From a virus (taxonomy: Duplodnaviria; Caudoviricetes): a DNA stretch of 64,000 nucleotides. The notes beneath the pieces are model-generated. The model ran no database searches. It had not been told where the DNA came from and saw nothing but the letters and a program-made list of their open reading frames with translations. Below are positions 8,124-50,457 of this stretch, piece after piece (position 1 is the first letter of the stretch; every line of letters begins with the position of its first letter). Made by a program: the position numbers and the translations under genes. The stretch lies in IMG/VR virus record IMGVR_UViG_3300011717_000032, positions 14,336 through 78,335 of that record; one strand, 5' to 3'.

Positions 8124-8828
8124 ATGTCCTCGAATTATGAAAAATCGCAGCTGACGAAAATCCTTATTTCGTCACTGCCAACGACCAGAGACGCAATGGA
8201 AACTGCCGTCTATCTCGATCTGAGCTGCACTCTCAAAGAGGCGCAGTTCACAGGCGGGCAAAAACAGGATATTGACGTCACCACGCTATGCTCCACTGAG
8301 CAGGAGAACGTCAATGGCCTCCCGGCCCCTTCGGAGATATCACTGTCAGGTAACTTTTACCGTAATGCTGCGCAGGATGCGTTGCGTGATGCGTATGACA
8401 ACGACACGGTTTATGGCTTCCAGATCATCTTCCCGTCTGGCAATGGCTTTAAGTTCCTTGCCGAAGTCCGTCAGCACACCTGGTCTTCCGGTACTAACGG
8501 CGTAGTGGCGGCAACGTTCTCCCTGCGTCTGAAAGGGAAGCCGGTACCGATTGACCCGGCACTTAAACTGACCACTGATTTGCCCGCCGCACAATCTGTA
8601 GCGGTTGGGGCGGCGATCAGTATGGCGGTCGCCGCCGCTGGCGGTAAACTTCCCTACAGCTTTGCCTGGAAGAAAGGTGGTGTCACCATCAGTGGGCAAA
8701 CATCTGATACATTCAATAAATCCAGCGCTGTTTCGGGTGATGCGGGAGATTACACCTGCGTGGTCACTGATTCTTCTGCCCCGATTAAGACAATTACATC
8801 ATCAACTTGTACCCTTACCGTCAATTAA
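8124..8828 (+). CDS. Major tail tube protein with C-terminal Ig-like domain
   Basis: First ~140 aa match the 147-aa P2 tube; extension YSFAWKKGG...DAGDYTCVVTD is I-set Ig-like. Confidence 0.9.
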   Translation: MSSNYEKSQLTKILISSLPTTRDAMETAVYLDLSCTLKEAQFTGGQKQDIDVTTLCSTEQENVNGLPAPSEISLSGNFYRNAAQDALRDAYDNDTVYGFQIIFPSGNGFKFLAEVRQHTWSSGTNGVVAATFSLRLKGKPVPIDPALKLTTDLPAAQSVAVGAAISMAVAAAGGKLPYSFAWKKGGVTISGQTSDTFNKSSAVSGDAGDYTCVVTDSSAPIKTITSSTCTLTVN

Positions 8829-37634: not shown

Positions 37635-38033
37635 ATGCATGACCCACTGACCATTGCTGGCGGAGTAACATCCGCAACAATCGGAGTGACGTTCGCATCT
37701 ATGTTCCCGGAGGCTACGCCAGGCGTAATGCTCGGTGCGCTGTCCGGTGCTGCAATGTACGTGCTGACATCCGATCCACATCAATTCTGGAAGCAGTTCC
37801 TGTTCGCCGTCATCAGCTTTGTTGGTGGGGTGTTCTTCTCAGTACCGATGGCGAAGATACTGGCCGGAGTGATTAATGCTGGTCTTGGCTTACTTAAGCC
37901 ACCGGTAGTGATCGAAGTATCCCCGAATATCGGCGCGCTGGTTTCCGCTTCCATCTCTGTCGCAGTCCTGCTTCGTATCCTCGCCAAATCAAAACGGGGG
38001 AAGATGCCGGGACTGGAGGAGGAAGGCCAATGA
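37635..38033 (+). CDS. Putative holin/antiholin
   Basis: Several hydrophobic segments, charged C-terminus; first lysis gene. Confidence 0.75.
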   Translation: MHDPLTIAGGVTSATIGVTFASMFPEATPGVMLGALSGAAMYVLTSDPHQFWKQFLFAVISFVGGVFFSVPMAKILAGVINAGLGLLKPPVVIEVSPNIGALVSASISVAVLLRILAKSKRGKMPGLEEEGQ

Positions 38034-38311
38034 CATGGCAAACCATCGTTCTGGATGCAAACGCCATTATCTGCGCACTAATCGTTGTCAGGCTGATGTT
38101 CTTCAGTAAGAGCGGTAAACGGCATCGGCCAGGAGTGGCCTGGATGGCATATCTGATGATCCTTGCCTCCGGCTTCACTGCGTTCCGAATCCTCTATGGG
38201 AAATACCTGCAGGTGGATCCGGGAGAGTTAATGCTAAACCTCGCAATATGCGTCGCCGTGTGGCGTTCACGCGGTAACCTCGCAAAGGTATTCCAGAAGG
38301 CTGACCAATGA
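38030..38311 (+). CDS. Holin
   Basis: Three hydrophobic segments, RSRGNLAK C-terminus; precedes endolysin. Confidence 0.75.
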   Translation: MTWQTIVLDANAIICALIVVRLMFFSKSGKRHRPGVAWMAYLMILASGFTAFRILYGKYLQVDPGELMLNLAICVAVWRSRGNLAKVFQKADQ

Positions 38312-38850
38312 CCAAAGACGATATTTTCAATGGCATCCTCGGAAAAGAGGGAGGCTACGTGAATCATCCTGATGACAAAGGCGGCCCGACGAATTGGGGA
38401 ATTACCCAGGCGACCGCTCGCGCCCACGGTTTTAAAGGTGATATGCGTGACCTGACCCGTGAACAGGCCCTCATGATTCTGGAGAATGATTACTGGTATG
38501 GGCCACGCTTCGACCAGGTAGCGGTTGTCTCCCCGACCATTGCAGCTGAGCTCTGCGACACAGGTGTGAATATGGGGCCCTCGGTTCAGGTGAAGTGGTT
38601 ACAGCGCTGGCTTAACGCATTCAATGACCAGCAGAAACTTTATCCAGACCTGAGCGCCGACGGTCAGATTGGGCCACGCAGCATTAGCGCACTAAAGTCA
38701 TTTCTGGGTAAACGAGGCAAAGAAGGCGAGTCCGTATTGCTTCGCGCTCTAAATTGCAGCCAGGGTCAGCGTTACCTCGAACTGGCAGAGCAGCGACCTG
38801 CAAATGAGTCATTCATCTACGGATGGATGCGGGAGCGCGTGAGCCTATGA
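38308..38850 (+). CDS. Endolysin, glycoside hydrolase family 108
   Basis: KEGGYVNHPDDKGGPTNWGIT; FIYGWMRER. Confidence 0.93.
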   Translation: MTKDDIFNGILGKEGGYVNHPDDKGGPTNWGITQATARAHGFKGDMRDLTREQALMILENDYWYGPRFDQVAVVSPTIAAELCDTGVNMGPSVQVKWLQRWLNAFNDQQKLYPDLSADGQIGPRSISALKSFLGKRGKEGESVLLRALNCSQGQRYLELAEQRPANESFIYGWMRERVSL

Positions 38851-39119
38851 CGAATCTGAAAGCTATCTTTGCGTTTATCGCCGCCGCCGCGCTGGTGGTG
38901 CTTGGAGCTTTTGGTATTGGCAGTATGCGCGGCCGGGAGAAGGCAGAAGCCAAAGTTGATAAGCAGCGAACCGATGAGAATGCCGCGGCCACCAAAGCAG
39001 CCGCAGAACGCCGCGTTGAAGTAACCAAGGAGACCAGCAATGTTCAGCAGACTGTTAACCATATGCCTGATGACGATGTTGATCGTGAGCTGCGCGCAAA
39101 CTGGACCCGCAAAGGTTGA
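38847..39119 (+). CDS. Inner-membrane spanin (Rz-like)
   Basis: N-terminal TM then coiled coil; after endolysin. Confidence 0.75.
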   Translation: MTNLKAIFAFIAAAALVVLGAFGIGSMRGREKAEAKVDKQRTDENAAATKAAAERRVEVTKETSNVQQTVNHMPDDDVDRELRANWTRKG

Positions 39120-39258
39120 AGTTATCGACACCGGATGTGACTGGGTCAACGTCATTCGCCTCAGTGAGCACGACATTGAAGTAATGGATCGGCAGACGAA
39201 GAAAGACGTACTGGCGCATAACAAATCAGTGCAGGCGAACTGCCGCAAACAGGAGTAG
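39040..39258 (+). CDS. Outer-membrane spanin lipoprotein (Rz1-like)
   Basis: Lipobox LIVSC; overlaps i-spanin 3' end in another frame. Confidence 0.75.
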   Translation: MFSRLLTICLMTMLIVSCAQTGPAKVEVIDTGCDWVNVIRLSEHDIEVMDRQTKKDVLAHNKSVQANCRKQE

Positions 39259-39324
39259 CGCATGCTTCTGAGTTCACATTCCATAGCGGGTCTTTTCCCG
39301 TATCCGAAAAAGCGAGAGCAACTG

Positions 39325-39609
39325 ATGAGTGAAGCAAAACCGCAGGATGGCAGCACAGTAAAGGGTTATCGAACCCTTACCGACGACGACATCGCACAAA
39401 TGAATGAGCTGAAAGATATTAGCCGTGACTTTTGCGAAAAGCTCGATATCGAGCGCCATCACATTCACCTTGAGATTGAGGAAGGTGACGCACCGGATAA
39501 AGACCAGTGCAATGACGCTCTGCGCTGCCTGTCCATTGCCCGTACCAAAATGCAGGAAGCCTGTATGTGGGCCTGTCGTGCTGTAGCGCGTCCTGCCTCT
39601 GATTGTTAA
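39325..39609 (+). CDS. Acb2-like cyclic-oligonucleotide sponge
   Basis: KGYRTL..I..MNELK and R.L.IARTKMQ...M...RAVARP match the Acb2 family pattern as recalled. Confidence 0.75.
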   Translation: MSEAKPQDGSTVKGYRTLTDDDIAQMNELKDISRDFCEKLDIERHHIHLEIEEGDAPDKDQCNDALRCLSIARTKMQEACMWACRAVARPASDC

Positions 39610-39724
39610 GCCATTACAAAGCTCATCTGCTGGTGGGCTTGATAATGGTATCCCCCAGAGAGGATAAATTAAAAATATCCTCTGTAGCGGCTAAAGAAGT
39701 CAATCATTTATAAGAGGATAATCA

Positions 39725-39970
39725 ATGTCCGAAGTTACCGTCACACCTGCACAACAGATACGTTTGAATTTATTGGCATCTCTTGGTTATGACACTGCGG
39801 CAGCCGCAGAGGCCATTAAGTTCGTTGGTGATGATCCGCTGAAGTATCAGATTTTCGTAAACCAGTTAAGCCGGGTTACAACTGAAAATGGGTTGGTGGC
39901 CAGAACGACCAAAGCCATTAAAGAGTCGGAAGAAGCGCTCCTGCTTTTTGACACTGAATCTGGCAGTTGA
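39725..39970 (+). CDS. DUF2560-like small protein ending in ESGS
   Basis: AGAGGA RBS; AAAEAIKFVG..RTTKAIKESEEALLLF; terminator GCCTCGC-TTAT-GCGGGGCTTTTTT at 39991. Confidence 0.65.
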   Translation: MSEVTVTPAQQIRLNLLASLGYDTAAAAEAIKFVGDDPLKYQIFVNQLSRVTTENGLVARTTKAIKESEEALLLFDTESGS

Positions 39971-40020
39971 GCATTACCGTTATCTGGCTGGCCTCGCTTA
40001 TGCGGGGCTTTTTTATGCGC

Positions 40021-40121
40021 TTCGCACGCGCACCATGAAGAGAGTCTTTCAGTAGTGAGCCTGGGTGATGCCGTTAGGTTGCGTTTACCTCTCGGGCGGT
40101 ATTGCCGTGTGGCAGGCTCAC
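40021..40121 (+). ncRNA. Conserved non-coding motif plus long hairpin ahead of the glycosyltransferase cassette
   Basis: CGCACGCGCACCA..AAGAGAGTC.TTCAGT.GTGAG also at 3-37 in P1; GTGAGCCTG (40055) / CAGGCTCAC (40113) inverted repeat. Confidence 0.45.
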
Positions 40122-40139
40122 GCCTAAAAGGAAACGCAC

Positions 40140-41597
40140 ATGCAGGTCACAATAGACGGTGTCCCGTATGCACCTGTCAATAATTCACGCGCTGTAATTG
40201 GAATCGCCATAACCACCCATAACAGAGCTGAAGTTCTTAAACGTGCTATTGAGCAGCACATGAAGCATCTGCCTACTGGAACATTGCTGGTGGTGATCGA
40301 TGATGGCTCCAAACCTGCTGCAGTAGCGCCTGACGGTGTGCAACTGCTTCGTCATGAATCATCGCTCGGCATTGTCGCCTCGAAGAACGCCAGCCTGACC
40401 GCGCTGATTGATGCCGGATGTGAACACCTTTTTCTGTGGGATGATGACGCCTGGCCTATCTCCGATAACTGGCATCTGCCTTACATAGAATCACCAGAAC
40501 CGCACCTGGCTTACCAGTTCCTCGATTTGGCTGGCCGCAATAAGCTGAACGATATTGCTGTGCTGTACCGGGATGATAAGCACATCGCTTACACCGGTCA
40601 GCGCGGTGTGATGCTCTACTTCCACCGTAGCGCCATTGATAAGGTTGGCGGATTCGATCCGATATATTGCCGCGGTATGTATGAGCATCCAGATCTGGCC
40701 CTTCGCATTCACAACGCCGGGTTATCGACCTGGGCGTTCGCTGATGTGGCTGGCTCTGAAAAACTGATTCATTCGATGGATGAGCATGAAGAGGGCTCTC
40801 GCTCAATACCCCGGCCAGAACGCGAGAGTCTCGCAAAGGCAAATGCAATAATCTACAGCGCCCGTCGGGATAGTGGCTATACAGCATATGTACCTTACCG
40901 ACAGCAGCATGATGTTGTTATCACGTCTCTCCTGACAAACCAGCCCGATCCGCAACGCAAGGTTAAGATGCCAGCCGATGCAGCCTTATTGCAGGCGTGG
41001 GCCCGTTCCATTCGTGGTGCTAAGGCTGTGGTGCTGGCAGACGAACTTGCTACTGCGCCGGAAGGTGTAACCCTGCAGTCTGTTCCTACATTGAACATGA
41101 GCCCGTACTTTGCGCGCTGGCTGCATATCTATCAACACCTGAGAGAGCATCCAGAATATCGCTTCGTGTGGTGTACCGACGGTACAGACGTTGAGATGCT
41201 TCGGGAACCTTGGGCAGCAATGCAACCCGGTAAAATTTACGTCGGCTCTGAGCATAAGACGTATGCAGAAGAGTGGATGAAGGCTAATCACCACGGCAAA
41301 GCCTATAGCGAGTTCCTCGAAAGATATCGTGACGATCAGCTGCTGAATGCTGGCCTGATTGGTGGCAGCCGTGAAGATGTAATTGAGTTTGCCCACCGGA
41401 TCATCCGTCAGCACTACCTGATTGAAAGCCATCGCTTCTGGAAGATGGAGTCAGCACCCGCAACGCAGGTGGACATGGGCGCTTTCGGGATGGCTGCAAA
41501 GTCATTCGGTGATCGAATCGTTACCGGTCCTCTGGTTCACACCATCTTTAAAACTGAGGGTTTCGGTAAGGAGGCTGCCTGGTGGAAGCACAAATAA
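40140..41597 (+). CDS. Two-domain glycosyltransferase (GT2 + second GT-A domain)
   Basis: IAITTHNR, VVIDDGS, FLWDDD; second domain WCTDGTD..YVGSE..LLNAGLIGG. Confidence 0.88.
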   Translation: MQVTIDGVPYAPVNNSRAVIGIAITTHNRAEVLKRAIEQHMKHLPTGTLLVVIDDGSKPAAVAPDGVQLLRHESSLGIVASKNASLTALIDAGCEHLFLWDDDAWPISDNWHLPYIESPEPHLAYQFLDLAGRNKLNDIAVLYRDDKHIAYTGQRGVMLYFHRSAIDKVGGFDPIYCRGMYEHPDLALRIHNAGLSTWAFADVAGSEKLIHSMDEHEEGSRSIPRPERESLAKANAIIYSARRDSGYTAYVPYRQQHDVVITSLLTNQPDPQRKVKMPADAALLQAWARSIRGAKAVVLADELATAPEGVTLQSVPTLNMSPYFARWLHIYQHLREHPEYRFVWCTDGTDVEMLREPWAAMQPGKIYVGSEHKTYAEEWMKANHHGKAYSEFLERYRDDQLLNAGLIGGSREDVIEFAHRIIRQHYLIESHRFWKMESAPATQVDMGAFGMAAKSFGDRIVTGPLVHTIFKTEGFGKEAAWWKHK

Positions 41598-42175
41598 AGT
41601 TTATTGTGGTCGGTCATCATAAGCGCTTTGAGCAGGCAAGCTCACTGGCTGCAGCTATAGGGCCAGCTTGTACGATGCTGATTGATGAGCAATACAGCGG
41701 AGCAAATGCCGGACATCGCCGCGCGCTTGAGTGGGCATTATGGCAGGATTGCCGTGTAGTAATTCTGGAAGATGATGCGCTGCCCGTCGCTGGCTTTACT
41801 GAGCTGGTGGGTGAATGGCTGAACCGCTTCCCTGATTCGCTTGTGAGCTTTTACCTGGGCACTGGCCGCCCACCTCAGTATCAGATGCAGGTAGCCGAAC
41901 GGCTGATTGTTGCTGATAAGACTCGGGCTGACTTCATCACGCTATCCCGCCTGATTCATGGTGTCTGTTACAGCGTACCTCCTCAGAAGATTCACAGCGT
42001 GCTCTCCCGATGGGATAGCAGTAAGCCTGCTGATTATGCAGTAGGTGACGCATATGGTGGTGCGGTGGTCTACCCATGCTGGTCTCTGGTGGACCATGCC
42101 GACGGCGAACCGGTTGAGCGACACCCTGACGCAGCCCCACGAACAGAGCGCCGTCGTGCGTGGAGGTTAGCCTGA
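41582..42175 (+). CDS. Second glycosyltransferase-like protein (GT25-like EDD motif)
   Basis: GHRRALEW, VVILEDDALP, SFYLGTGRP, SLVDHAD; GGAGG RBS; TGATG-coupled to HNH. Confidence 0.75.
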   Translation: MEAQIKFIVVGHHKRFEQASSLAAAIGPACTMLIDEQYSGANAGHRRALEWALWQDCRVVILEDDALPVAGFTELVGEWLNRFPDSLVSFYLGTGRPPQYQMQVAERLIVADKTRADFITLSRLIHGVCYSVPPQKIHSVLSRWDSSKPADYAVGDAYGGAVVYPCWSLVDHADGEPVERHPDAAPRTERRRAWRLA

Positions 42176-42525
42176 TGCCTGCGTTAATACCCAGAGCATG
42201 CCGCAAGCGTGGCTGTTCAGGCACAACTACAGACCGCTCAGGCTACTGCCCTACGCACCTTAATGAAGGCTGGCAACAGCATCAGCGAGGACAAAGCAGA
42301 CATCAGCGCGGCTATGGCAGCAAATGGGACAGGCTGCGTCCTCTCGTTCTCAACAGAGATAAACATCTTTGTCGGGAGTGCCTGAGGAATGGACGGTACA
42401 CACCTGCTGAGACGGTCGATCACATTACCGCTAAAGCGAATGGGGGTACCGATGACCTGTCCAATCTCGAAAGCCTCTGCAAGCCTTGCCACAGGGCGAA
42501 GACAGCGGTCGAAAGGCTCAAATGA
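42175..42525 (+). CDS. HNH endonuclease (terminase-associated)
   Basis: CRECL..VDHITAKANGGTDDLSNLESLCKPCH; paralog of 80-430. Confidence 0.92.
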   Translation: MPALIPRACRKRGCSGTTTDRSGYCPTHLNEGWQQHQRGQSRHQRGYGSKWDRLRPLVLNRDKHLCRECLRNGRYTPAETVDHITAKANGGTDDLSNLESLCKPCHRAKTAVERLK

Positions 42526-42610
42526 TATCAATTCTCACTTGCATCGACCGAGGGGGAGGGCGGGTTGAAAGTTCAGGAACGACGCGCCAAAGGACCGCCG
42601 CCTAACCTCT
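42522..42610 (+). other. Putative cos region of P2
   Basis: Same motif set as 660-745, including ACCGCCGCCT at 42594. Confidence 0.65.
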
Positions 42611-42682
42611 TTTCACATCGCCGCAGGTTAGAAAACTTTTTTATGGGGTCCCCCATTCGATGATTAATAGGAGTTTTCGATT

Positions 42683-43156
42683 ATGTCAGGACCACCGAAA
42701 ACCCCGACCCATCTACGTTTGGTGAGGGGTAACCCATCAAAACGCCCGATCAACGAAAACGAACCAAAACCAGCTGCTGGGGTACCCCCAACACCGAAGC
42801 ATTTCGACAAGCAGGGGAAATACTGGTTTAAGCGAATGGCCGAGGAGCTTGATGCTATCGGCGTGATGTCGCAGCTGGATGCCAGAGCCCTGGAATTGCT
42901 GGTGGAGGCATATACCGAGTATCGGCACCACTGCGAAACGCTCGAAGTTGAGGGCTATACCTACCGGACCGAAACACAGACAGGTGATGTGATGATCAAG
43001 GCTCACCCGGCCGCGATCATGAAAGCCGATGCCTGGAAACGTCTTCGCGCCATGCTTGGTGAGTTCGGCATGACCCCAGCCAGTCGCTCTAAGGTGAATG
43101 CAAAAGCGCCGGATGCGGTTGACCCGCTGGCCGAGTTTATGAAAGCGAGGGACTAA
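42683..43156 (+). CDS. terS: Terminase small subunit (P27 family)
   Basis: GPPKTPTHLRLVRGNPSKR, KAHPA, EFGMTPASR. Confidence 0.92.
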   Translation: MSGPPKTPTHLRLVRGNPSKRPINENEPKPAAGVPPTPKHFDKQGKYWFKRMAEELDAIGVMSQLDARALELLVEAYTEYRHHCETLEVEGYTYRTETQTGDVMIKAHPAAIMKADAWKRLRAMLGEFGMTPASRSKVNAKAPDAVDPLAEFMKARD

Positions 43157-44892
43157 TGGCTAAGGTTGCAGATGGCATCCGCTACGCCGAGAAGGTAGTG
43201 GCAGGGGAAATTATTGCCTGCGAGTATGTGCGCCTTGCCTGTCAGCGTTTTATTGACGATCTGGCGAACGGTGAAGAGCGTGGAATCTTTTTCAGCGAGC
43301 CCCGCGCGCAGCACATATTAAATTTTTATAAGTTTGTTCCACATGTTAAGGGCGCACTGGCAGGACAGCCCATTGAACTGATGGACTGGCATGTATTCAT
43401 CCTGATTAATATTTATGGCTTCGTGATCCCGTTGGTTAACGAAGAAACGGGAGAACCGGTCCTGCGTAACGATGGGAGCGGGCGACCGGTAATGGTCAGG
43501 CGGTTCCGTACAGCAGATGTCGAAGTGGCCCGTAAAAACGCCAAATCAACTCTTTGCTCTGGCGTTGGGCTGTATATGGCTGGTGCTGATGGCGAGGGCG
43601 GCGCGGAGGTCTATTCTGCTGCTACCACTCGTGACCAGGCGCGAATTGTTTTTGAAGATGCGAAGAACATGGTCAAGAAGGCGAAAGCCACCCTTGGGCG
43701 ACTCTTCGAATTCAACAAACTTGCCATCTATCAGGAGCAGACGGCTTCTAAATTCGAGCCGTTATCATCAGACGCAAACAACCTCGACGGCCTGAACATC
43801 CACTGCGCCATCGTAGACGAACTGCATGCTCACAAAACCCGTGACGTCTGGGACGTGCTAGAGACCGCAACAGGCGCGCGCCTTCAGTCGTTATTGTTCG
43901 GCATCACTACCGCAGGGTTCAACAAAGAGGGCATCTGTTACGAGCTGCGCGATTACGCCATTAAGGTGCTACGTGGCCTTGTAAAAGACGACACGTTTTT
44001 CGCAATCATCTACACCCTGGATGATGGTGACGATCCCTTTGATGAAAAAGTCTGGCAAAAGGCGAATCCGGGGCTGGGTATATGCAAGCGCTGGGATGAT
44101 CTGCGCCGTCTGGCGAAAAAGGCGAAAGAGCAGGTTTCGGCCAGGGTTAACTTTTTCACAAAGCACATGAATATCTGGGTTACCGCTGAATCTGCCTGGA
44201 TGGACATGATGAAGTGGGAAAAATGCGAAGTTATTGCCCCGCAGCATGAGCTTAAAACCTATCCCTCATGGGTTGGTGTGGATCTTTCAAACAAGATAGA
44301 TATTTGTGCTGCAGTCAAAGTCTGGCGAGCGCCTGACGGCCACGTACATGCTGATTTTAAATTCTGGTTACCAGAAGGTCGCCTGGAGAAGTGTTCCCGC
44401 CAGATGGCCGAGCTTTATCGAAAGTGGGCAGAACTGGACAGGCTAATCCTTACTGACGGGGATGTAATCGACCATGCCCAGATCAAAGAGGAGCTTCAGC
44501 AATGGGTTGCAGGTGAGAGCCTGAAAGAAATCGGCTTCGACCCTTGGAGCGCAACCCAGTTTAGTCTGGCGCTGGCAGAAGAAGGGCTTCCGCTGGTGGA
44601 AGTACCGCAGACGGTTCGCAACTACTCAGAAGCGATGAAAGAAGTAGAAGCCCTGGTTTATGGTGGGCGCTTCCATCACAGCGATCACCCGGTCATGAAC
44701 TGGATGATGTCGAACGTAACCGTCAAGCCTGACCGGAACGAGAACATTTTCCCGAACAAGTCCACACCAGAGGCCAAAATTGACGGCCCAGCTGCGTTGT
44801 TTACGGCAATGAGCCGCGTTCTGGTTAATGGGGGCAACGACCAGCAGGATCTTTCCGGATTCTTCAACAATCCCATCATGGTAGGTTTCTGA
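43156..44892 (+). CDS. terL: Terminase large subunit
   Basis: VARKNAKS, IVDELHAH, KIDG motifs. Confidence 0.95.
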   Translation: MAKVADGIRYAEKVVAGEIIACEYVRLACQRFIDDLANGEERGIFFSEPRAQHILNFYKFVPHVKGALAGQPIELMDWHVFILINIYGFVIPLVNEETGEPVLRNDGSGRPVMVRRFRTADVEVARKNAKSTLCSGVGLYMAGADGEGGAEVYSAATTRDQARIVFEDAKNMVKKAKATLGRLFEFNKLAIYQEQTASKFEPLSSDANNLDGLNIHCAIVDELHAHKTRDVWDVLETATGARLQSLLFGITTAGFNKEGICYELRDYAIKVLRGLVKDDTFFAIIYTLDDGDDPFDEKVWQKANPGLGICKRWDDLRRLAKKAKEQVSARVNFFTKHMNIWVTAESAWMDMMKWEKCEVIAPQHELKTYPSWVGVDLSNKIDICAAVKVWRAPDGHVHADFKFWLPEGRLEKCSRQMAELYRKWAELDRLILTDGDVIDHAQIKEELQQWVAGESLKEIGFDPWSATQFSLALAEEGLPLVEVPQTVRNYSEAMKEVEALVYGGRFHHSDHPVMNWMMSNVTVKPDRNENIFPNKSTPEAKIDGPAALFTAMSRVLVNGGNDQQDLSGFFNNPIMVGF

Positions 44893-47067: not shown

Positions 47068-48279
47068 ATGTCTGAAGTAAACGATATTCTGAAAAAAGTT
47101 ACTGCCAGCATTGAAGAGGCAACCGGCAAGTTCAACGCCAAAGCAGAAGACGCACTTAAAGAGGCGAAGAAATCCGGCAAGCTGTCAGAAGAAACAAAGG
47201 CAGCCGTTGATAAAATGGCTTCTGAGTTCAACGCCCTGCGCGAAGCAGAAAAAACGCTGAAGGCGGCGATGGGCGAGCTTGAGCAGCACGTTGCACAGAT
47301 GCCGCTGGCAAATGCAAAACAGGTTGTCGAATCAATCGGTCATCAACTGATCTCTGCTGAAGCGCTGAAAAACTTTGCCGCAAGCGTGGATGGTGGTAAG
47401 CGCATCAGTATCCCTGTTAAAGCAGCACTGACCTCAGCGGATGTACCTGATGGTGTCGTCGAACCTCAGCGCATTCCAGGTATCGATACGGCACCAAAAC
47501 AGCGCCTGTTCATCCGTGATCTGATTGCGCCAGGCCGCACTTCCTCTCCGGCAATTTTTTGGGTGCAGCAGACAGGCTTCACCAATAACGCGAAAGTGGT
47601 TCCTGAGAATACCCAGAAACCATATAGCGAGATTGAGTTCACACCAAAAATCACGGGCGTCAGCACCATTGCTCACCTGTTTAAAGCTTCCAAACAGATC
47701 CTTGATGATTTCGCACAACTGCAGTCAACCGTTGATGCCGAAATGCGCTACGGTCTGAAATATGCAGAAGAGCAGGAAATCCTCTTCGGTGACGGCACTG
47801 GTGTTCACCTACACGGCATCGTTCCTCAGGCTTCAGCGTTCGACCCGGCGTTTACCGTTGAACAGCAGAGCGGTATTGACGATCTGCGCCTGGCAATGTT
47901 GCAGGCGCAGCTGGCGCGCTTCCCGGCTTCCGGCCACGTGCTTCACTTCATCGACTGGGCGCGGATCGAACTGACCAAAGACAGCCTGGGTCGTTATATC
48001 CTGGCTAACCCGGCTGCGCTGACTGGACCGACTCTTTGGGGCCTGCCAGTTGTTGCTACGGAAGCGGCAGCCTTCCAGGGTAAATTCCTGACCGGTGCAT
48101 TCAACGCAGGCGCACAAATCTTCGACCGCGAAGATGCCAACGTTGTGATCTCTACTGAGAACGCCGATGACTTCGAGAAAAACATGATCACCATCCGTTG
48201 CGAAGAACGCCTGGCGCTGGCCGTCAAACGTCCAGAAGCATTCGTGTATGGTGCATTCCGTACCGGTTCCGGCAGCTAA
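47068..48279 (+). CDS. Major capsid protein; C-terminus RTGSGS
   Basis: Paralog of 5158-6378. Confidence 0.95.
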   Translation: MSEVNDILKKVTASIEEATGKFNAKAEDALKEAKKSGKLSEETKAAVDKMASEFNALREAEKTLKAAMGELEQHVAQMPLANAKQVVESIGHQLISAEALKNFAASVDGGKRISIPVKAALTSADVPDGVVEPQRIPGIDTAPKQRLFIRDLIAPGRTSSPAIFWVQQTGFTNNAKVVPENTQKPYSEIEFTPKITGVSTIAHLFKASKQILDDFAQLQSTVDAEMRYGLKYAEEQEILFGDGTGVHLHGIVPQASAFDPAFTVEQQSGIDDLRLAMLQAQLARFPASGHVLHFIDWARIELTKDSLGRYILANPAALTGPTLWGLPVVATEAAAFQGKFLTGAFNAGAQIFDREDANVVISTENADDFEKNMITIRCEERLALAVKRPEAFVYGAFRTGSGS

Positions 48280-48320
48280 TAAACATTGCGGCCTTCGGGC
48301 CGCTCATACAGGTGGAAGTG

Positions 48321-48491
48321 ATGAAACTGATCGCACTTAAACCGATTTATTTCGGTGGCGTTGTCGTGTCTGAAGGACATCCGCTGGAGACGCTGGAACA
48401 ACACGGTCGTGAGCTAATTAAAAAAGGCTACGCGAAGACCGACGAAACCGAGAAGCCTGAACCCAAAGCAGATAAGAAGGCGAAAAAGTAA
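48321..48491 (+). CDS. Small head-region protein
   Basis: MKLIALKPIYF, paralog of 6432-6617. Confidence 0.7.
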   Translation: MKLIALKPIYFGGVVVSEGHPLETLEQHGRELIKKGYAKTDETEKPEPKADKKAKK

Positions 48492-48817
48492 TGATCGATC
48501 TTGATGTGGTGAAACAGCACTGCCGCATTGATACCGACTTTACCGGTGATGATGCCCTACTGGAGATATATACGGGGGCAGCGGCGCGGTACGTCCAGAA
48601 ATGGACAAGACGAACGCTTTATGAGACGGAGAGCAGTGCCGGATATAGCGAAGATCCTGATTCGATTCTCCTGACGGAGGATGTAAAAGCCGCCATGCTC
48701 TTGCTGATTGGTCACTGGTATGCAAATCGTGAGGCGGTGAATATCGGCAACATAACCACAGCTGTCCCCTTCGCTGTAGAAGCTCTGTTACAGCCTTATC
48801 GTATTTATGGAGTCTAG
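48491..48817 (+). CDS. Head-tail connector
   Basis: VVKQHCRID, LLLIGHWYANRE, LLQPYR. Confidence 0.88.
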   Translation: MIDLDVVKQHCRIDTDFTGDDALLEIYTGAAARYVQKWTRRTLYETESSAGYSEDPDSILLTEDVKAAMLLLIGHWYANREAVNIGNITTAVPFAVEALLQPYRIYGV

Positions 48818-48825
48818 GAGGATTT

Positions 48826-49164
48826 ATGCAGGCCGGAAGACTCAGGGATATGGTTACTGTTCAGAAGTTTACGACTACGCGAGACACGTCAGGTCAGATG
48901 GTTGAGGCATGGACTAACGGTGCAACGATATGGGCAGAAGTAAAGGGAATCAGTGGTCGCGAGTTAGTTGCTGCTGGGGCTGAAACCTCCCAGGCAACTA
49001 TCAGAGTATGGACCAGATTCCGTCGAGATATAACAGCCGCATCAAGGTTAATAGTTGTTACTGGCCCCTTAAAAGGTGCTGTGCTGAACATTATCGGCCC
49101 ACCCATACCAGACGCCAAAGGCGTACAACTCGAAATTCTCTGCAAGCAGGGATCTGAGAAATGA
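48826..49164 (+). CDS. Head closure protein
   Basis: MQAGRLRDMVTVQ; position. Confidence 0.88.
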   Translation: MQAGRLRDMVTVQKFTTTRDTSGQMVEAWTNGATIWAEVKGISGRELVAAGAETSQATIRVWTRFRRDITAASRLIVVTGPLKGAVLNIIGPPIPDAKGVQLEILCKQGSEK

Positions 49165-49610
49165 TCGGAACGAGCCTTGATTTTTCCGGACTGGCCGACA
49201 TCGCAAAAGACCTTGAGGCGCTCAGTCGCGCTGAAAATAACAAAGTTCTGCGCGATGCCACGCGCGCCGGGGCCGAAGTGCTTAAAGATGAGGTGATCTC
49301 CCGCGCGCCGGTACGCACCGGAAAACTGAAAAAAAATGTGGTTGTGGTGACACAGAAAAGCCGCCGCCGCGGCGAAATTTCTTCTGGTGTGCATATCCGT
49401 GGCATTAACCCTCATACCGGCAACAGCGATAACTCGATGAAGGCGGATAACCCGAGAAATGCCTTTTACTGGCGCTTTGTAGAGCTGGGAACCGCGAATA
49501 TGCCAGCGCATCCATTTGTGCGGCCAGCTTACGATACTCGCGAAGAAGAGGCTGCAAGTGCTGCTATTGCCAGGATGAATCAGGCTATTGATGAGGTGCT
49601 TAGCAAGTGA
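49161..49610 (+). CDS. HK97 gp10-family protein
   Basis: Paralog of 7288-7737. Confidence 0.88.
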   Translation: MIGTSLDFSGLADIAKDLEALSRAENNKVLRDATRAGAEVLKDEVISRAPVRTGKLKKNVVVVTQKSRRRGEISSGVHIRGINPHTGNSDNSMKADNPRNAFYWRFVELGTANMPAHPFVRPAYDTREEEAASAAIARMNQAIDEVLSK

Positions 49611-49954
49611 ATGAAGATGATATCTACGCCTTGCTTTCTCCCCTGGCAGAAGGCCGGGTGTATCCTTACGTCGCGCCATTAAGTAATGACGGTAAACCAT
49701 CTGTCTCCCCACCCTGGATAATCTATTCCATCGTCTCAGATGTTTCTGCAGACGTGCTGTGTGGTCAGGCAGAGAACAGGGTTTCCGTTCAGGTAGATGT
49801 TTATTCCACAACAATCACAGAATCGCGAGATCTTAGAGATTTGGCGCTTGCCTCGCTTAAGCCGCTGAACCCTACAGAGGTGGTAAAAATCCCCGGATAC
49901 GAACCAGATTATCGGCTCTACCGTGCCACCCTGGATTTTAAAGTTACCCCCTGA
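49607..49954 (+). CDS. Tail terminator protein
   Basis: VQVDVYS; paralog of 7734-8063. Confidence 0.8.
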   Translation: MNEDDIYALLSPLAEGRVYPYVAPLSNDGKPSVSPPWIIYSIVSDVSADVLCGQAENRVSVQVDVYSTTITESRDLRDLALASLKPLNPTEVVKIPGYEPDYRLYRATLDFKVTP

Positions 49955-50013
49955 TAAATCATTAACCCAACGAACCCGCTTAATGGCAGGTTTTCTTTTT
50001 CCAGGAGACAGCT

Positions 50014-50457
50014 ATGTCTGCACTTTATGAAAAATCGCAGCTGACGAAGATCCTTATTTCCTCTGCGCCAGCCACCAAAGAAACGATGGACTCCGCAACC
50101 TTCCTCGATTTGAGTTGCACCATCAAAGAGATTCAGTTCACCGGCGGTCAGAAGCAGGATATCGACGTTACAACGCTTTGCTCAACCGAGCAGGAGAACA
50201 TTAACGGACTCCCTTCTCCGTCAGAAATTTCTCTTTCCGGTAATTTCTACAAAAATCCGGCGCAGGACGCATTGCGCGATGCGTATGACAACGATACGAC
50301 CTACGCTTTCCAGGTCATTTTCCCATCCGGCAAAGGATTTAATTTCCTGGCTGAAATCCGCCAGCACACCTGGTCTTCCGGTACCAACGGTGTAGTGGCG
50401 GCAACGTTCTCCCTGCGCCTGAAGGGTAAGCCTGAAAACATCGAATCTGGTTCCTGA
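50014..50457 (+). CDS. Major tail tube protein without Ig domain; C-terminus NIESGS
   Basis: Paralog of the N-terminal part of 8124-8828. Confidence 0.9.
   Translation: MSALYEKSQLTKILISSAPATKETMDSATFLDLSCTIKEIQFTGGQKQDIDVTTLCSTEQENINGLPSPSEISLSGNFYKNPAQDALRDAYDNDTTYAFQVIFPSGKGFNFLAEIRQHTWSSGTNGVVAATFSLRLKGKPENIESGS

Follow-up and report, generated by a model that had tools for sequence, protein, structure and literature searches.

To our knowledge, glycosylation of the virion has been demonstrated experimentally in actinobacteriophages only. O-glycosylation of the particle was reportedly described by Freeman et al. in 2023 (Cell Host Microbe 31:1216) for two mycobacteriophages, Che8 (gp108-gp110) and Corndog (gp36-gp38). 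Here, we compare this system with a 64-kb stretch of DNA (termed the window), which covers bases 14336-78335 of the 78,335-base IMG/VR provirus record IMGVR_UViG_3300011717_000032 and carries two related HK97-like prophages in tandem, P1 followed by P2. The subjects of the comparison are the two glycosyltransferases (GTs) of P2, GT1 and GT2, and the short C-terminal tag with the end Gly-Ser (GS) on its major capsid and tail-tube proteins. According to PMC12363180, PMC12619734, and PMC11600133, through which the mycobacteriophage system is known here, gp110 of Che8 and gp38 of Corndog are the two GTs essential for capsid glycosylation (PMC12363180), and the capsid and tube subunits carry the glycans on their C-termini (PMC12619734). 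The latter source agrees with a preliminary description of the window, which had named these proteins and positions as the glycosylated ones.

The termini of the mycobacteriophage proteins are GS or DS. The Che8 capsid (gp6) and tube (gp11) end with VVFNKTGS and EQYSDGS, respectively, and the Corndog capsid (gp41) and tube (gp49) with VPLVGS and DIKGDS. All of the 74 cluster F genomes possess KTGS on the capsid and SDGS on the tube. The search of IMG/VR with the Che8 capsid yielded mostly linear isolate genomes, in which the GT region lies at the other end, and thus informs on the termini only, not on the association with GT genes. No sequence similarity was detectable between the capsid and tube proteins of Che8 or Corndog and the P2 counterparts. 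Judging from the homology of the enzymes and the distribution of the tag, we regard it as likely that the capsid and tube subunits of P2 are glycosylated on the C-terminal serine by the phage's own enzymes, with GT2 initiating and GT1 extending the glycan, as in the Che8-type mycobacteriophages.

Tagged proteins and glycosyltransferases of P2

The structural genes occupy positions ~790-20400 in P1 and ~42680-61900 in P2. The P2 capsid protein ends with GAFRTGSGS, of which RTGSGS is the tail past the conserved YGAF, while the core of the P2 tube protein stops at LRLKGKP and is followed by the tail ENIESGS. The ends are encoded by ACC GGT TCC GGC AGC TAA in the capsid gene (terminal Ser codon at 48274-48276) and by GAA TCT GGT TCC TGA in the tube gene (terminal Ser codon at 50452-50454). 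As the codons for Ser-Gly-Ser differ between the two genes (TCC GGC AGC and TCT GGT TCC, respectively), the match is at the protein level, and an origin of the tag by DNA duplication was ruled out on the same ground. Among the 361 open reading frames (ORFs) of at least 50 aa in six frames of the window, exactly three possess GS ends, namely those for the P2 capsid, the P2 tube, and a DUF2560 protein, all within ~10 kb of the GT pair. This pattern exceeds the chance expectation.

The P1 paralogs of the three proteins are untagged. The P1 capsid is 82% identical to the P2 capsid but ends with GAFTAPAAGGGA (APAAGGGA). The P1 and P2 tubes share 82% identity over 144 aa, after which the P1 protein runs on into an Ig domain and ends with CTLTVN. 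The end of the P1 DUF2560 paralog is PSEEA. Thus, three paralog pairs in a single record differ in the same way, as predicted. P1 lacks GT genes: GT2 is present in a single copy in the whole 78,335-base record, and none was found in the interval of P1 from the lysis genes to the HNH endonuclease gene, which comprises an Acb2-like gene, the DUF2560 paralog, a 137-aa ORF, and the HNH gene. Both the translations and the DNA bear out the preliminary description in these respects, that is, the P2 ends with their unlike codons and the closely similar but untagged P1 paralogs.

GT2 aligned with Che8 gp110 at 35% identity over 193 aa (blastp, E 2.5e-27) and with Corndog gp38 at E 3e-12 (blastp), and the best match of all three proteins was phrog_854. 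The predicted structure of GT2, with a predicted local distance difference test (pLDDT) value of 91.9, displays a GT-A fold, and its EDDA motif is of the acidic DxD type. The solved folds nearest to the GT2 model are protein-directed GT-A enzymes, namely Mimivirus R655, POMGNT1, LH3/COLGALT1, and ppGalNAc-T. In the sequence-profile search, GT2 retrieved no solved structure. No Pfam family, including Glyco_transf_25 (CAZy GT25), matched GT2 at E-values up to 1, while 3 of 19 GT2 relatives showed weak matches to Glyco_transf_25 (best E 8e-5). In hundreds of mycobacteriophages, GT1 is matched over its full length by homologues with 44% identity, including a 485-aa GT of cluster F, and homologues with ~67-73% identity are present in HK542, mEp390, ENT39118, ECP1, FSL SP-016, and others. 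The GT1 model best matched the two-domain synthases PmHS2 and K4CP, and the N-terminal domain weakly matched phrog_8858, the family of Che8 gp108. From these similarities, GT2 is probably the initiating transferase that recognizes the C-terminal tag, and the extension of the glycan is probably the task of GT1.

The GT genes overlap by 16 bases on the same strand and lie on the late strand between the lysis cassette and the HNH/terminase genes, behind a terminator-like hairpin at 39990. At the border formed by the HNH gene, relatives either carry or lack the GT cassette, and the genomes lacking the cassette pass from the lysis genes straight to HNH. No membrane segment was found in GT1 or GT2 (maximum Kyte-Doolittle value of 1.1 over 19 residues), and neither Gtr-like neighbors nor a flippase were found among the ORFs of 38000-43200. 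As the two enzymes have no membrane segments, they are unlike the Gtr-type serotype converters, and we rejected such a role for them.

The positions of the features are given in Table 1. The DUF2560 protein is perhaps a third substrate of the GTs. Its homologues were found in 5 of the 111 GT-positive loci, each just upstream of GT1, and all five end in Ser. No NCBIfam family matched GT2 or the DUF2560 protein. Labels such as L384 below designate loci of the relatives compared. An Acb2/Tad1-like gene (Pfam Acb2_Tad1_hairpin, E 5e-19) lies between the lysis genes and the DUF2560 gene in both prophages, and the two copies (window 39262-39609 and L384:13000-13356) are 69% identical to each other. 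At L048:3455-5105, the GT1 match ends at residue 445 and the adjacent GT2 match begins at residue 90, which looks like a deletion fusing or breaking both genes; the capsid of this locus still ends with GAGS, and no GS-ending tube was found there.

Table 1. Positions in the window of the P2 glycosyltransferase genes, the tagged proteins, and their P1 paralogs
Feature	Position	Strand	Basis and remarks
GT1, 485 aa, two tandem GT-A domains	40140-41597	+	phrog_1579 (E 7e-226); predicted fold
GT2, 197 aa, GT-A enzyme with EDDA motif	41582-42175	+	phrog_854; predicted fold
HNH endonuclease, packaging module	42160-42525	+	Pfam HNH (E 7e-15); overlaps the end of GT2
P2 major capsid protein, HK97 fold, 403 aa	47068-48279	+	Pfam Phage_capsid (E 2.7e-54); phrog_10
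P2 major tail (tube) protein, 147 aa	50014-50457	+	phrog_158 (E 1e-59); Pfam Phage_TTP_11
DUF2560 protein, 81 aa, end TESGS	39725-39970	+	Pfam DUF2560 (E 2.6e-17); directly upstream of GT1
P1 major capsid protein, untagged paralog, 406 aa	5158-6378	+	Translation; Pfam
P1 tail tube protein, untagged paralog, 234 aa, C-terminal Ig domain in place of the tag	8124-8828	+	Pfam Ig_2

The terminal serine as the candidate acceptor

In the set of one genome per species, GT2 was found in 61 loci, of which ~45 belong to Enterobacterales and ~12 are actinobacterial prophages. The hosts from Enterobacterales include Citrobacter, Kluyvera, Kosakonia, Pantoea, Erwinia, Rahnella, Sodalis, and Leminorella. All of the 39 capsids and 37 tubes identified beside GT2 in the Enterobacterales members of this set end in Ser. 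GS ends were found on 30 of these capsids and 29 of these tubes, and the rest end with TS, NS, or SS. Ser-Gly-Ser, which the preliminary description had taken as the acceptor sequon, does not hold as the motif, because the relatives mostly carry AGS, PGS, or QGS, and some of them TS. As judged from the alignments, the conserved unit is x-[Gly/Thr]-Ser-COOH, in which the terminal Ser is invariant. In the tube alignment, the core extends to GKP and is followed by 5-9 variable residues, of which the last Ser is the sole invariant position. The terminal Ser is encoded by all six codons, belonging to both codon families. Such codon variety, together with the fixed end despite the variable tail length, suggests that the tag has been maintained by selection at the protein level.

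It is conceivable, albeit unlikely, that the GS tail is a docking motif for GT2 and that the sugars are placed on other residues, either nearby Ser/Thr in the tail or other residues on the surface. Many tails do contain extra Ser/Thr (e.g., RTGSGS, IESGS, and KTGS of Che8), and the Corndog tube, which ends with GDS, indicates that the exact dipeptide is not strict. On the other hand, the last residue is Ser in 76 of the 76 species-level cases, while all other tail positions vary. Furthermore, the terminal Ser is the only Ser/Thr among the last eight residues in 15 of the 44 distinct tube tails and 3 of the 41 distinct capsid tails. As the terminal Ser is often the lone hydroxyl residue of the tail, the last residue is indicated as the acceptor.

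The type of the capsid tag (GS or TS/NS) clusters on the GT2 tree, with three changes as compared to 8.3 in shuffles, and none of 500 shuffles was as low. The capsids with TS tend to accompany tubes with TS. These patterns are suggestive of co-adaptation between the enzyme and the tag in the GS and TS lineages, for which shared ancestry of whole phages is an alternative. The minority lineages carrying Thr-Ser on both capsid and tube (L257, L258, L267, L269, and L274) fall into a few GT2 clades. Two GT2-bearing loci have non-enterobacterial titles, namely L245 (Martelella alba) and L252 (Pseudomonas lundensis). Their GT2 sequences are 71-76% identical to that of the window and their capsids are of the enterobacterial type, so that the names may stem from contamination or assembly mislabelling.

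Association of the tag with the glycosyltransferase genes

We compared 207 non-duplicate loci in IMG/VR, which were centered on the P2 capsid, GT2, and the P1 capsid. GS ends were found on 80 of the 82 capsids in the GT-positive loci as compared to 2 of the 56 in the GT-negative loci, and on 85 of the 91 tubes as compared to 8 of the 43. The GT-negative capsids mostly end with GGGA or PAGA. Among the loci with HK97-type capsids, 61 of the 64 that could be judged were GT-positive, and in the GT-positive loci the tag was present on 61 of the 61 capsids and 53 of the 55 tubes. GS ends account for 7.4% of the ORFs of at least 100 aa in the GT-positive loci, in contrast to 1.1% in the GT-negative loci and 0.6% on the opposite strand, and 89% of the GS-ending ORFs of this size in the GT-positive loci are capsid or tube.

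The GS-ending ORFs of at least 100 aa in the GT2-bearing loci were listed blind to function and identified afterwards. The tagged capsids found beside GT2 belong to Phage_capsid, a Peptidase_S78-capsid fusion, a ClpP-Phage_capsid_4 fusion, Gp13-like, DUF6260 (phrog_771), SU10_MCP, and Phage_cap_E. With the Che8 and Corndog types added, at least nine capsid families are tagged beside GT2. The tagged tubes beside GT2 are of the HK97 type, the HK022 type, Phage_tail_3, Phage_TTP_12, and Phage_TTP_17. In some of the tagged phages, the GT pair is situated directly after the capsid gene instead of before the terminase gene. Other tagged proteins beside GT2 are a cement (decoration) protein, Ad1 adaptors, and two portals. 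The GS-ending portals and Ad1 adaptors, seen in some GT-positive prophages (L280:13505-14779, L297:11903-14947, L283:16447-16773, and L292:14830-15222), are not obviously exposed on the particle.

HK97, HK022, and HK542 offer a comparison on a constant capsid. The capsid proteins of HK97 (gp5, L085:4028-5185) and HK022 (gp5, L086:4028-5185) are 100% identical to that of HK542 (L084:3979-5136), and all of them end with FSSGS. HK97 and HK022, which are model phages of E. coli, share the head and tail type and the genome layout with P2, but they have no GT genes, and an Ig domain or KVVTP forms the end of their tubes. The latter is the end of the HK022 tube, which is 70% identical to the tagged tubes. 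Twelve complete isolates possess this capsid, of which three are GT-positive and nine GT-negative. Among the nine, six capsids end with FSSGS and three with TFSAD, and no tube is tagged. Since there are tagged isolates without GTs, the presence of the enzymes cannot be predicted from the tag alone. The capsid tag of HK97 and HK022 is apparently unused, and its persistence without GTs fits frequent module exchange at the HNH boundary, with the tag being harmless when unused.

Several points weigh against glycosylation at the tag. Within families, the independent events are few: the capsid tree (192 rows) requires only eight changes in the GT state and six in the tag state, and about two independent pairs on this tree changed as predicted, none in the opposite direction, and four remained unchanged (p 0.5), with similar outcomes for the tube trees. 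Because of this paucity, the weight of the case rests on the convergence across families, not on the raw two-by-two tables. The tag outlives the enzymes in HK97, HK022, and the four other GT-negative isolates mentioned above. Furthermore, L002 and L013 are tagged yet GT-negative, whereas both tags are missing in the GT-positive L152, and the capsid tag is missing in L066, which is GT-positive as well. Most tubes that carry Ig domains lack the tag, also when the phage is GT-positive. The Klebsiella jumbo phage vB_KpM_FBKp24 (307 kb, L385) has the GT pair yet no tagged capsid-sized ORF, as far as scanned by ORF ends, its capsid gene not having been located.

In vB_KpM_FBKp24, the GT1-GT2 pair (139828-141897 of the record) forms a lone island on the strand opposite to its neighbors. 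GS or TS ends were found on 3 of its 354 ORFs of at least 100 aa, one of which encodes a 180-aa virion structural protein (L401:7864-8406, weak match to phrog_2935) with the end FSAGS. The search of this record for Pfam Gp23 gave no match. As for the untagged tubes of the Ig type, they include the P1 tube, L097:12610-13770, and those in GT-positive loci with the ends VTVA or TLTVN. One tube (L277:7160-7918) possesses both a Big_2 domain and a GS end (VTEQGS). Going by where lambda-type tubes carry their Ig domain, the terminus of the tube core should point outward, and the tag and the Ig domain seem to be two alternative ways of decorating this exposed end.

We consider it quite improbable that the GS ends are neutral markers of modules travelling with the GT cassette, while the GTs act on other targets such as host envelope sugars or DNA. 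The few independent events in the tree-aware tests and the tag of the GT-negative HK97 and HK022 would be accounted for by such hitch-hiking, and the GTs of enterobacterial phages are usually regarded as serotype converters. Nevertheless, the tag recurs on at least nine capsid and at least five tube families without detectable similarity, in two phyla and three gene arrangements. The enzymes have neither membrane segments nor a Gtr-type flippase at their side, GT2 is homologous to a GT reported as essential for capsid glycosylation, and the three HK97-type capsids that lost the tag, albeit 99% identical, are all GT-negative. An assembly or processing role of the C-terminal Gly-Ser, for instance as a protease or chaperone signal unrelated to glycosylation, is hardly credible: nothing specific speaks for it besides the general observation that short C-terminal tails can affect capsid assembly, close relatives assemble with GGGA, PAGA, or FSAD tails or with Ig domains, and it is the GT pair that co-varies with the tag, while no protease or chaperone gene does.

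Altogether, the proposal in the preliminary description that the C-terminal tag is the acceptor for the GTs encoded at 40140-42175, with the untagged and GT-less P1 as a control, is strongly favored by the homology to gp110 and by the tag tracking the GTs across families. The expected excess of GS termini in GT-positive relatives is borne out by the counts for both capsids and tubes, although it is not exclusive and, by the standard set in that description, the proposal is partly contradicted, as HK97, HK022, and the four other isolates retain Ser-Gly-Ser on the capsid without GTs, their tubes being untagged.

Proposed mechanism and comparison with known systems

We propose that P2, a temperate enterobacterial phage of the HK97 type, probably glycosylates the particles that it forms. 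At a late stage of infection, two soluble cytoplasmic GTs would be produced from the late operon, in which their genes lie between the lysis and HNH/terminase genes. GT2, the counterpart of Che8 gp110, would read a short flexible tail of the major capsid and tail-tube subunits, whose end is Gly-Ser-COOH or, in certain lineages, Thr-Ser, and would attach the first sugar to the terminal serine. The small DUF2560 protein may be treated likewise. GT1, with its two GT-A domains, would then extend the glycan. The outcome would be a sugar layer over the head and tail, which might shield the particle against antibodies or confer adherence and take the place of the Ig domains of the untagged tubes. P1, which has neither the enzymes nor the tags, would stay bare in the same cell.

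In the literature searched, we found no report of virion glycosylation for phages of Gram-negative hosts. The enzymes and the tag are homologous and identical in form, respectively, to those of the mycobacteriophage system, and what is new is their presence in phages of Gram-negative hosts. We lean toward a more general proposal, in which a C-terminal sequon of two residues (Gly-Ser-COOH, or Thr-Ser), read by a small soluble phage GT-A enzyme, would direct O-glycosylation to proteins on the virion surface, both in phages of Actinobacteria and in those of many Enterobacterales, relatives of HK97 among them, with the tag and the enzyme co-evolving and the glycan serving as an alternative to Ig-like domains. 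If true, sugar-coated virions would be common among gut and plant-associated phages of Gram-negative hosts, including a well-known group that infects E. coli, Salmonella, Klebsiella, Cronobacter, Pantoea, and Erwinia, in which heads and tails would both be coated. This would matter for phage therapy, as regards clearance and recognition by antibodies, for adherence to gut mucus, and for the interpretation of cryo-EM (cryogenic electron microscopy) densities. Likewise, the tag and GT2 would represent a portable cytoplasmic protein-glycosylation system working in E. coli, attractive for glyco-engineering. A test should be unusually simple, given that the GT-positive HK542 and the GT-negative HK97 have capsid proteins without a single residue of difference.

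Phage-encoded GTs are familiar from the Gtr systems, which consist of membrane proteins (GtrA, GtrB, and a specific GT), are expressed from prophages near the attachment site, and modify the O-antigen. GT1 and GT2 resemble them in being phage-encoded GT-A enzymes of temperate phages infecting the same hosts, but differ in being apparently soluble, encoded in the putative late operon, and co-varying with tags on virion proteins. With GT25 and other protein-directed GT-A enzymes (COLGALT1/LH3, POMGNT1, ppGalNAc-T, and Mimivirus R655 and R699), GT2 shares the fold and the acidic DxD-type motif. However, the identities of 9-13% and the TM-scores of 0.5-0.65 to the GT2 model (TMq 0.58 for COLGALT1) represent a resemblance in fold, not membership.

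The closest likeness is to Che8 and Corndog. P2 shares with them a GT2 homologue of gp110/gp38 (phrog_854), a GS-type C-terminal end common to capsid and tube, and a further GT, GT1, which is adjacent on the same strand and overlaps GT2. The gene order in Che8, namely GTs, HNH, (genome end), and terminase, is also that of P2. Glycosylation, which is experimental in the mycobacteriophages, is predicted for P2, and the host of P2 is a Gram-negative enterobacterium. Finally, Che8 possesses gp108, a GT fused to a methyltransferase, and gp109 (phrog_1721), where P2 has a single protein with two GT-A domains. As the accessory enzymes differ from those of Che8, the glycan of P2 is probably different as well.

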